Assembly (NCBI GenBank): GCA_024689005.1
Contig: JAILDU010000093.1
Span: forward strand, 649-64,648
DNA length: 64,000 bases
Direction of reading: 5' to 3'
Source: Paludibacteraceae bacterium
GTDB taxonomy: Bacteria > Bacteroidota > Bacteroidia > Bacteroidales > Paludibacteraceae
Made by a program: the position numbers and the translations under genes. Numbering within the stretch: the first letter of the stretch is position 1; every line of letters starts with the position of its first letter. This document shows positions 57,706 to 58,482 of this stretch, in pieces. The notes under the pieces were generated by a model that was not told the origin of the DNA, did not search any database, and saw nothing but the letters and a program-made list of their open reading frames with translations.

Positions 57706-58482
57706 TTATTCCATGCTGATTACAGTCACTTCTGCGATTGTTCTTCCTCCCTCGCGAAGATGCAGCTTCTGGCCGATGAATGATACAAGTCCGCAATAGG
57801 CTTGCTTAATTTCAATAGTAGCATTGTAGCATGTATCGCCCGGCATCAACAAGTCTGTTACCTCATTCTTACTATTAGTTCCAAGGGATGTCACTTCCGA
57901 AAGAATATCAGTTTTTCCGTTGTTGAGCATCGGTTTATAACCGGCGAAGAAAGGTGTGTGAGTTCCGCCTTCTTCCTTGGTAAATTTATGTATGTCGCAA
58001 AAGAACTTGTGCGCTTTGAAGTACGGAGAATTCTCTGCTGCCACAATGGCTCCGCCTCTCTGACCTGTCAGTTTTTCCTTGACTGAAGTGCTAACAAGGA
58101 ATCCGAGTCGGTTGACTGTGTCCATTTCTGCCGTAGATTGATAGGTCTTTTTGCCTCTCTGAAGGCCTTTGATGGTGTCGCAGAATGAAGCCAGCGTGTC
58201 GGACACAGGGATGAAACGAATGACGTCGCCCACGCTGAGAGTGGTATTGCTGAGCAAAGTGTCGCATGTGACTATTGTTCCTCTGCCTGTGAGTTGCAAT
58301 ATGTCGTCTATGTAGGCCAATATGTCGTTACTCTTGGCAAAAGTGATGCTATCTACCATCTCAAAAGCTTTCTGTTCTACAATGTGGCCGTTCTTCCAGA
58401 TCTTCATGATTCGTGTCTGTTCCTGGGCCATAGCACTTGTTGCTACTATGGCAGCAAGTGCAAAAAGTATAATCTTTTTCAT
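57706..58482 (-). CDS. Secreted protein homologous to EF-Tu domains II and III (no G domain)
   Basis: Signal peptide [19 protein letters not shown]. Colinear EF-Tu matches are [36 protein letters not shown] and [13 protein letters not shown]. Confidence 0.7.
   Translation of the reverse strand: [258 protein letters not shown]

Follow-up and report, generated by a model that had tools for sequence, protein, structure and literature searches.

This study was concerned with a gene for an exported relative of elongation factor Tu (EF-Tu) in a 64-kb stretch of DNA, called the window here, whose host is a rumen Bacteroidales bacterium (Paludibacteraceae). The gene encodes a protein of 258 amino acids (aa), identical to the NCBI entry [quoted passage not shown], which is laid out as a signal peptide, a 25-aa beta-hairpin termed the N-module, and EF-Tu domains II and III (D2 and D3, together D2D3), with no G domain. 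[quoted passage not shown] The two genes and their parts are as follows.

57706..58482 (-): gene of the exported EF-Tu D2+D3 protein, 258 aa, from open reading frame, profile and model evidence
58426..58482 (-): signal peptide, aa 1-19, with predicted signal peptidase I (SPI) cleavage between AMA and Q, from sequence features
58339..58413 (-): N-module, aa 24-48, a beta-hairpin with strands 25-30 and 33-39 in the AlphaFold2 (AF2) model, from motif conservation
58039..58320 (-): EF-Tu domain II-like beta-barrel, aa ~55-148, from EF-Tu alignments, AF2 and Foldseek
57712..58014 (-): EF-Tu domain III-like beta-barrel, aa ~157-257, with loops EEGGTHTPF and REGGRT, from PF03143 (E 3e-12)
58483..58522 (-): intergenic spacer of 40 nt, from the mini-protein gene to the D2D3 gene
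58523..59011 (-): partner mini-protein gene, 162 aa, from PF18962 (E 1e-13) and TIGR04183 (E 6e-13)

The similarity of the window protein to EF-Tu is far above chance. Four NCBIfam EF-Tu models align its residues ~41-255 with EF-Tu ~198-390 at E values of 9e-21 to 3e-19. Their scores of 69-74 bits fall under the family cutoffs of 449-522 because the first ~200 EF-Tu positions, the G domain, have no counterpart, and the alignments begin at model position ~170-198. The Pfam model for D3, PF03143 (GTP_EFTU_D3), matched residues 157-256 (E 3.2e-12, 47.1 bits against a cutoff of 27). The Pfam model for D2, PF03144, was sub-threshold for the window protein and was detected in its relatives P0003, P0008 and P0013; D2 itself is recognized from residues ~54-148, which are colinear with EF-Tu 210-300 and superposed on it in Foldseek. 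Pfam gave no match to the G domain (PF00009) in the D2D3 protein, and the P-loop (GHVDHGKT), DCPGH and NKxD motifs are absent from it. Sequence matches in the PDB numbered 60, of which 59 were EF-Tu or EF-Tu-derived chains, the best being colinear over residues 54-251 with an E value of 8e-17. All the motif pairs set against EF-Tu in the original prediction, an earlier reading made from the letters alone, were reproduced in the PDB chain alignment.

The AF2 model built on an alignment of 82 sequences was confident (pLDDT 91.6, pTM 0.78) and superseded a single-sequence model with a pLDDT of 31. It contains a helix at residues 2-21, the two N-module strands and two beta-domains. The best 50 matches of this model in a Foldseek comparison with the PDB were all EF-Tu (E ~1e-15, rmsd 2.1-4 Å over 206-220 columns), and since one superposition covers both domains, the mutual arrangement of D2 and D3 is EF-Tu-like. 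The profile and structure comparisons thus agree with the original prediction that D2 and D3 are present without a G domain.

Set beside EF-Tu proper (TIGR00485; PF00009, PF03144 and PF03143), D2 and D3 are homologous and colinear, 25-30% identical, and the same in fold and mutual orientation, and the motifs GRGT-V-T, EEGG-HTPF, MPGD and REGGRT are kept. The protein differs in lacking a G domain, which leaves it without a cycle of GTP, EF-Ts and ribosome, and in having a cleavable signal peptide and an extra N-terminal hairpin. EF-Tu is cytoplasmic, has no signal peptide and is encoded in a str or tufB context, whereas the D2D3 gene lies in a T9SS-linked operon with valS and the T9SS-CTD gene as its neighbours. 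The window protein is an exported D2D3 module, a new and unannotated kind of EF-Tu derivative, and no dedicated Pfam or NCBIfam model matched it.

The signal peptide is made up of an n-region rich in lysine, a hydrophobic core of 15 residues and an A-x-A site followed by Q, which are the canonical n, h and c regions of the Sec-type signal that had been predicted. A19 and Q20 are invariant across six orthologue clusters, which fits the Bacteroidetes "Q-rule" for SPI substrates (PMC5837995, PMC10653852). The N-module motif, (M/L)(K/R)(V/I)W..G.......IDSI(T/V)F, is found at aa 26-48 and occurs once in the 64-kb window.

The mini-protein begins with a signal peptide (aa 1-20). Its N-domain of ~55 aa (aa ~21-75, 58787-58951) consists of two sub-repeats that resemble hairpins, and a linker rich in P, T and E leads from there to the type A T9SS sorting domain (aa 96-162, 58526-58726). 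Its PF18962 and TIGR04183 matches and the 40-nt gap confirm the T9SS-CTD mini-protein of the original prediction. Orthologues of the mini-protein are 42-63% identical, against 31-47% for D2D3, and its C-terminus, YLLQVGAEVVKFIK, is invariant. In the D2D3 protein nothing follows domain III, which closes the chain at residue 258, and neither PF18962 nor TIGR04183 gave a match. No terminator was found in the 40-nt spacer, so co-transcription of the two genes is presumed, and the presumed unit is bounded by the following features.

59224..59256 (-): candidate Bacteroidetes-type promoter, by consensus match only, with ATTG (-33-like) at 59256-59253, a 21-nt spacer and the -7 box TATATTTG at 59231-59224
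57656..57683 (-): intrinsic-terminator-like hairpin, 23 nt past the stop codon, with an 11-bp stem (6 GC pairs) and then the T-run TTTTTTGTAT

A sigma-70 scan is not applicable to Bacteroidetes promoters. The D2D3 operon is set among housekeeping genes, with dxs-like (638 aa) and valS (877 aa) genes at 52928-57477 (-) and rplM/rpsI at 61358-62211 (+). For valS a separate Bacteroidetes-type -7 box was noted (TACCTTTG, at about 57575), in support of the D2D3 operon as a transcription unit of its own.

The wider family of D2D3 modules

A word-indexed homologue search matched the window protein alone, a singleton at 90% identity. An exhaustive HMMER scan of 1.84 billion cluster representatives gave five more clusters of 242-262 aa, which align with it end to end at 31-47% identity, and also many longer proteins in which D2D3 occurs without a G domain. 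Sorted by plain motif and BLAST criteria, the best 150 representatives comprise about 55 that combine the absence of domain I with an export or anchor feature, 33 genuine EF-Tu proteins and a remainder of ambiguous fragments. A Pfam scan placed D2D3 in several architectures: C-terminal to three SLH repeats, once as a tandem pair; after a type I dockerin (Dockerin_1) in the final part of DUF285/BspA-LRR proteins of 1800-2100 aa; in lipoproteins with a lipobox and Listeria-Bacteroides repeats (Flg_new/InlB B); after an N-terminal zinc ribbon and a hydrophobic, transmembrane (TM) segment; and with Big_3, Ig_3, PLAT, phospholipase C or a pectate-lyase-like adhesive domain. These partner architectures are hallmarks of cell-surface proteins, and of the roles suggested in the original prediction, that of a surface adhesin fits the domain company of D2D3 best. 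The window protein, which joins D2 and D3 without domain I to an export signal, belongs to a sizeable, undescribed family of extracytoplasmic D2D3 modules. Its relatives carry no functional name, being unnamed or labelled "hypothetical protein" or "elongation factor Tu" (P0151), and a full-text literature search brought up no account of EF-Tu modules that are exported or lack the G domain. With no dedicated Pfam or NCBIfam model either, the earlier statement that no such family had been described holds.

The gene would not be functional at all if it were a tuf remnant in decay, a chimera made in assembly or a spurious open reading frame. The singleton status of the window protein and its position on the longest branch of its clade would suit that explanation, as would the many "D2D3-only" database proteins that are broken tuf genes. 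For example, P0233 was rejected as a G-domain-less member as a frameshifted tuf in the str operon, and P0039, P0063 and P0105 were rejected as tuf artefacts. However, the orthologues at 31-47% identity are intact and full length in independent assemblies, with the operon kept while the flanks differ. In addition, conservation extends to the signal peptide and N-module, AF2 models the protein with confidence, and the gene has a terminator of its own and lies outside the str operon. This explanation is effectively refuted, and the gene is, as had been claimed, an intact and diverged one and not a decaying tuf copy.

Other EF-Tu-derived sequences met in the scan are of different kinds. P0019 and P0020 (221-256 aa) consist of duplicated canonical EF-Tu domain II/III pieces, with copies 70-80% alike by eye, and are probably assembly or gene-call chimeras, not family members. 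A viral origin or association of the family was rejected, as the IMG/VR and phage matches were ordinary tuf with G domains at contig edges, with one exception. This exception, L042:2878-4419 on a 232-kb viral contig (IMGVR_UViG_3300035703_001720), encodes 513 aa without a signal peptide, arranged as a short N-terminus, D2D3, a cyclophilin-like region (FHRVISGFMIQGGDP) and a thioredoxin-like C-terminus (WCGAC). Its D2D3 is 64% identical to that of E. coli, and the 3 kb upstream gave no G-domain match; it is a second, independent kind of G-domain-less D2D3, apparently virus-encoded and cytoplasmic.

Two observations concern the genomic settings of family members. On one metagenomic contig, lipoprotein-type D2D3 paralogues of 322 and 413 aa (L063:5001-5969 and L063:8847-10088) flank a TonB-dependent receptor gene with a Plug domain (L063:6032-8401), the second paralogue being divergent from the receptor. 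This single locus is a possible hint of a surface lipoprotein/TonB-transporter pairing. Also, the zinc-ribbon and D2D3 gene P0286 (L060-L062:5001-5966), found on 17 contigs, lies between HSP90/HSP20 and a pyruvate:ferredoxin oxidoreductase gene and is bracketed by IS110 and ISL3 transposase fragments, which suggests that mobile elements may have brought it in or moved it.

Residue conservation and possible ligands

A conservation table was made from 52 exported modules aligned with 41 canonical EF-Tu sequences. Numbering is that of E. coli EF-Tu; the reference sequence used for it agreed at 16 landmark residues and was 90-95% identical to a fragment in the database. The positions best kept in the exported modules are the fold glycines and prolines and two neighbouring D3 loops, with E315, G316, G317, R318, T320, P321, R377, E378, G380 and T382 kept in 81-96% of the 52 modules. 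The D2 motif E215, D216, F218, G222-G224, V226 and T228 is kept in 65-85%. The exported family differs from EF-Tu in the loss of residues invariant there, namely R373 (0% kept), A375 (12%), R333 (12%) and H301 (8%), and of R230, E232 and R233 (15-25% kept); R279 and G280 are also lost. Several of the lost residues we take to lie at the domain I-III interface (A375 being a kirromycin-resistance site) or on the ribosome-facing side of domain II, and their disappearance is in keeping with a protein that has neither domain I nor a ribosomal cycle.

The window protein (P0001 in the alignment) has R373K, A375H, R333G and H301A, and keeps E315, G316, G317, T320, P321, R377, E378, G380 and T382, with T in place of R318. 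It is the most diverged of its clade, with E215D, F218L, E259Q, F261G, N273T, R318T and Q329M. In a neighbour-joining (NJ) tree, the exported modules form one group outside the sampled EF-Tu. Nearest to EF-Tu are the zinc-ribbon/TM forms, at 45-67% identity. The dockerin forms and the Bacteroidales short family are sister groups, and P0001 and P0002 are sisters inside the exported group with a bootstrap of 93/100.

The two genes of the operon gave different substitution patterns. Mini-protein pairs have omega values of 0.18-0.27, which is ordinary purifying selection. The closest D2D3 pair (L004 and L008) has 9 nonsynonymous and 0 synonymous differences; 6 of the replacements are in D3, 2 of them in the GGRHTPF loop. 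Five near-clonal contigs show one change across ~3 kb, and it is a D2D3 replacement. Together the two comparisons give 10 nonsynonymous to 0 synonymous changes. Under neutrality this count has a P of about 0.07, short of significance, and it is no more than a hint of diversifying or relaxed selection on a protein that is exposed.

Such a count might be expected under antagonistic co-evolution, as would apply if the module were an extracellular EF-Tu mimic that serves as a decoy or sink for GE2270A-type thiopeptides, elfamycins, toxin domains or phage proteins. The D2 aminoacyl/CCA pocket (E215, D216, F218, R223, V226, T228, G257, E259, N273 and G275) is kept in 50-85% of the exported modules even though they never meet aminoacyl-tRNA, and this pocket is presumably the GE2270A site (structures 1D8T and 2C77, both among the Foldseek matches). 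However, the 10:0 ratio does not reach significance, and the kept D2 residues may be simply structural. The partner domains (LRR, Ig, InlB repeats and adhesive domains) point to adhesion, not to antibiotic capture. The decoy is further weakened for the window protein because residues of the D2 pocket have diverged, much of it having been lost through E215D, F218L, E259Q, F261G and N273T. We consider this explanation improbable.

A still more improbable explanation is an extracellular nucleic-acid or nucleotide binder, working through the D3 T-stem loops for biofilm matrix or nutrient capture. No elements of the exported family are better conserved than the D3 loops EEGGRHTP and REGGRT, and in EF-Tu, as in the Thermus ternary complex (R330, H331, T332, E390 and G391, Thermus numbering), these loops meet the T-stem of the tRNA. 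In the L063 locus described above, one lipoprotein D2D3 member and a second D2D3 paralogue are neighbours of a TonB-dependent receptor gene. Against this, we know of no case in which isolated D2D3 without domain I binds tRNA. R288 is kept in only 69% of modules, R279, R333 and K294 are mostly lost, and the window protein has R318T and Q329M. In addition, no nuclease or uptake genes were linked to D2D3 at the loci examined.

Mini-protein and N-module cargo pairs

In the survey of orthologues and neighbours that had been proposed for this gene, the mini-protein adjoins D2D3 in every orthologous locus with enough flanking DNA (L001, L002, L004, L005 and L008), where it lies immediately upstream. 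The genes around the pair differ, being valS/dxs in the window, murI-like/dnaN in L001 and ubiA/ABC ATPase in L005.

The mini-protein alignment, a query that avoids tuf genes, was scanned over 185,579 GTDB genomes and JGI metagenomes. The scan gave 26 loci, comprising 24 full-length orthologue loci, L017 and L016. L017 is a contig-edge fragment followed by an N-module GH66 gene, and L016 was rejected as a mini-protein locus since it encodes an unrelated 491-aa CTD protein; both fell below the E threshold of the pair table. The named loci come from Paludibacteraceae or uncultured Bacteroidales metagenome-assembled genomes (MAGs) from cattle, reindeer and red deer. The 24 full-length loci together with the window, L001, L002, L004 and L005 make 29 loci. 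In 29 of 29, the next gene begins -4 to +67 nt downstream of the mini-protein gene and encodes a signal peptide, an N-module and a variable body, termed the cargo body here. The cargo bodies found were as follows.

EF-Tu D2D3: 6 loci
Two SusE/F-type binding modules (carbohydrate-binding modules, CBM) and GH66: 16 loci
Omp28 domain: 4 loci
DUF4988 and Big_2: 3 loci
Other, a fragment of 78 aa (L031): 1 locus

The N-module motif is conserved across five cargo classes downstream of the mini-protein. The four cargo types that were scanned complete (D2D3, GH66, Omp28, and DUF4988 with Big_2) gave no Por_Secre_tail match, and the cargo N-termini shown contain no lipobox. One MAG, RUG13802, has two operons with different cargos and one mini-protein each. 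The window gene follows the same pattern, standing 40 nt after an orthologue of the ~160-aa CTD mini-protein and encoding a signal peptide and the N-module motif.

Since all 29 pairs share this arrangement with varied bodies, the conserved unit is a CTD mini-protein followed by an N-module-tagged cargo without a CTD. Judged by gene order, the mini-protein is the obligate, conserved partner of the N-module and not of D2D3 as such, and EF-Tu D2D3 is by the same measure one of several interchangeable cargos. The D2D3 gene belongs to a kind of operon not recognised before, in which cargos without a CTD are coupled to a mini-protein with a T9SS tail. The original prediction of an exported EF-Tu D2+D3 paralogue without the GTPase domain is in this respect not only supported but extended.

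The GH66-type operon has a setting of its own. At L010:1071-6980 (RUG13802), and in its equivalents L011-L013 and L019-L023, it lies in a cluster resembling a polysaccharide utilization locus, in the order SusE/SusF-like lipoprotein, lipoprotein GH66, CTD mini-protein, and N-module+CBM+GH66 enzyme. The GH66 family thus occurs twice per cluster, once as a lipoprotein and once as a cargo coupled to the mini-protein.

Proposed surface display and its alternatives

We hold it somewhat probable that the locus is a two-gene operon for a cell-surface-displayed, EF-Tu-derived binding module that is delivered or anchored through the T9SS mini-protein by way of the N-module. Both genes would be co-transcribed from the Bacteroidetes-type promoter (59256-59224) to the terminator (57683-57656). 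Sec would carry both products over the inner membrane, and signal peptidase I would leave an N-terminal Gln on the D2D3 protein. The mini-protein would be translocated by the T9SS, lose its CTD and be linked to anionic lipopolysaccharide (A-LPS) at the surface, by analogy with other type A cargos. The N-module hairpin of the cargo may dock onto the two-hairpin N-domain of the mini-protein, and the CTD-less D2D3 protein would then be co-exported or held at the surface, with the mini-protein acting as a CTD supplied in trans. More speculatively, surface D2D3 may act as a ligand-binding or adhesive module, and the likeliest candidate for the contact surface is the D3 loop pair EEGGR-H-TP and REGGRT, which would be exposed once domain I is gone. 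The broader proposal is offered tentatively, as possible and no more, that D2D3 is a dedicated Sec-exported surface module in Bacteroidota and in bacteria with Gram-positive-type anchors and also that a T9SS signal acts in trans in rumen Paludibacteraceae, where the ~160-aa mini-protein would recruit D2D3, GH66 dextranase, Omp28 and DUF4988 cargos by their common 25-aa hairpin. There is a substantial chance that such a trans-acting sorting signal is mechanistically new. A search of the T9SS literature found no report of a CTD supplied in trans, and T9SS cargos are stated to "invariably possess" a CTD (PMC8545088).

Several observations weigh against surface display or limit its reach. First, the same literature search found no precedent for T9SS transport of a CTD-less passenger, and an ordinary SPI substrate that has neither a CTD nor a lipid anchor would be periplasmic by default. 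Secondly, N-module-like sequences also occur in D2D3 proteins without an adjoining mini-protein; for example, the P0013 gene in L007 has 480 nt of upstream DNA without a mini-protein partner. A profile search with the signal peptide and N-module returned a few short fragments, which says little on the spread of the N-module. Third, a profile-profile comparison of the N-module with the mini-protein sub-repeats gave a weak match (probability 53%, P 1e-4, 15 columns), and the interaction of the two is proposed from gene adjacency. A Rosetta-stone check found no D2D3 protein with a CTD like that of the mini-protein. The contexts of non-Bacteroidales members (zinc-ribbon, SLH and lipoprotein forms) gave no conserved functional neighbours, and the NJ bootstrap for a single exported clade is 30/100, so a single origin is possible and is not claimed. 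Lastly, the divergence of the window protein at conserved positions means that a family-consensus ligand may not apply to it.

The main alternative is that the D2D3 protein is periplasmic, or in the lumen of outer-membrane vesicles, where it binds a periplasmic ligand, and that the mini-protein is just co-regulated with it, or acts in signalling or as a chaperone without transporting the D2D3 protein. The SPI-type signal and the lack of a CTD and of a lipobox are what a periplasmic protein would have. SPI-signal periplasmic glycoside hydrolases are common in Bacteroidota, and on that general knowledge the GH66 cargo need not be surface-located. The description of T9SS cargos as invariably CTD-bearing (PMC8545088) counts in the same direction. 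However, a CTD protein is encoded next door in 29 of 29 loci, across unrelated cargos that have the N-module alone in common, and without physical coupling this is hard to explain. The GH66 cargo has SusE/F-type binding modules, which are typical of surface proteins, and all other architectures join D2D3 to surface anchors such as SLH, dockerin or lipid. Periplasmic location is for these reasons unlikely, though it keeps an appreciable share of our belief, and surface display through the mini-protein is the reading followed below.

Display through a separate CTD protein was compared with three known arrangements. Like type A T9SS cargos (for example P. gingivalis RgpB; Por_Secre_tail, TIGR04183), the mini-protein has a bona fide type A CTD, and by analogy it should be secreted and A-LPS-anchored as they are. 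Type A cargos, however, join passenger and CTD in one polypeptide, whereas here they are encoded by separate adjacent genes. Type B CTD cargos have cognate PorP/SprF-like partner genes, and the partner is needed for surface anchorage (PMC9143113). The likeness is that of a T9SS-related gene pair with the partner encoded next to the cargo. In the type B pairs the cargo bears the CTD and the partner is an outer-membrane beta-barrel, whereas here the cargo has no CTD and the CTD protein is small and soluble. In Gram-positive cohesin-dockerin and SLH anchoring, a small module likewise attaches diverse cargos to a surface scaffold, and other members of the D2D3 family carry dockerin or SLH themselves. 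The N-module differs in being a ~25-aa hairpin unrelated to dockerin, with a mini-protein interaction that is again proposed from adjacency.

Whether EF-Tu without a signal peptide at the cell surface reflects biology or leakage has been argued for two decades. Such "moonlighting" EF-Tu, which has no signal peptide, has been reported from the surfaces of many bacteria and to adhere to fibronectin, mucin, plasminogen and factor H, and the fibronectin-binding regions of M. pneumoniae EF-Tu are aa 192-292 and 314-394 (PMC6822514). The likeness to the present family is that of an extracellular EF-Tu-derived polypeptide, and the M. pneumoniae adhesive regions correspond to D2 and D3, the part exported here. 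Moonlighting EF-Tu is the full-length cytoplasmic factor taking a "non-classical" route, whereas the window protein is a dedicated paralogue with a Sec signal from a family with dedicated anchors. A widespread family that has kept the reportedly adhesive half, lost the GTPase and gained signals and anchors shows that the fold has been selected for work outside the cytoplasm. This exported family may be a hard-wired counterpart of moonlighting adhesion, and its modules are clean, GTPase-free proteins for testing what the fold binds. The pairing of a CTD mini-protein with CTD-less N-module cargos suggests T9SS secretion or anchoring with the signal in trans; if true, these would be the first split-signal, adaptor-mediated T9SS substrates, and the pairing would offer a modular display system. 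Present predictions of T9SS secretomes count only CTD-bearing proteins, so a trans signal would change them.

Some minor features were noted upstream of the operon. An unusually long non-coding region of ~890 nt separates the mini-protein gene from a divergent gene at 59902 and contains three tandem copies of GATACCGACGA at 59310-59345 (-). An Rfam scan of 57400-60000 found no RNA family. The divergent gene, 59902-60885 (+), encodes a secreted protein of 327 aa with no Pfam or NCBIfam match. The C-terminus of this protein (KDGQLLIYHNGQTFTAQGSQLR) resembles KILRDGQVYILRDGQRFTVTGTMEK of L014:3428-3976, an unrelated small protein upstream of an Omp28-type operon, and the two may share a C-terminal motif.

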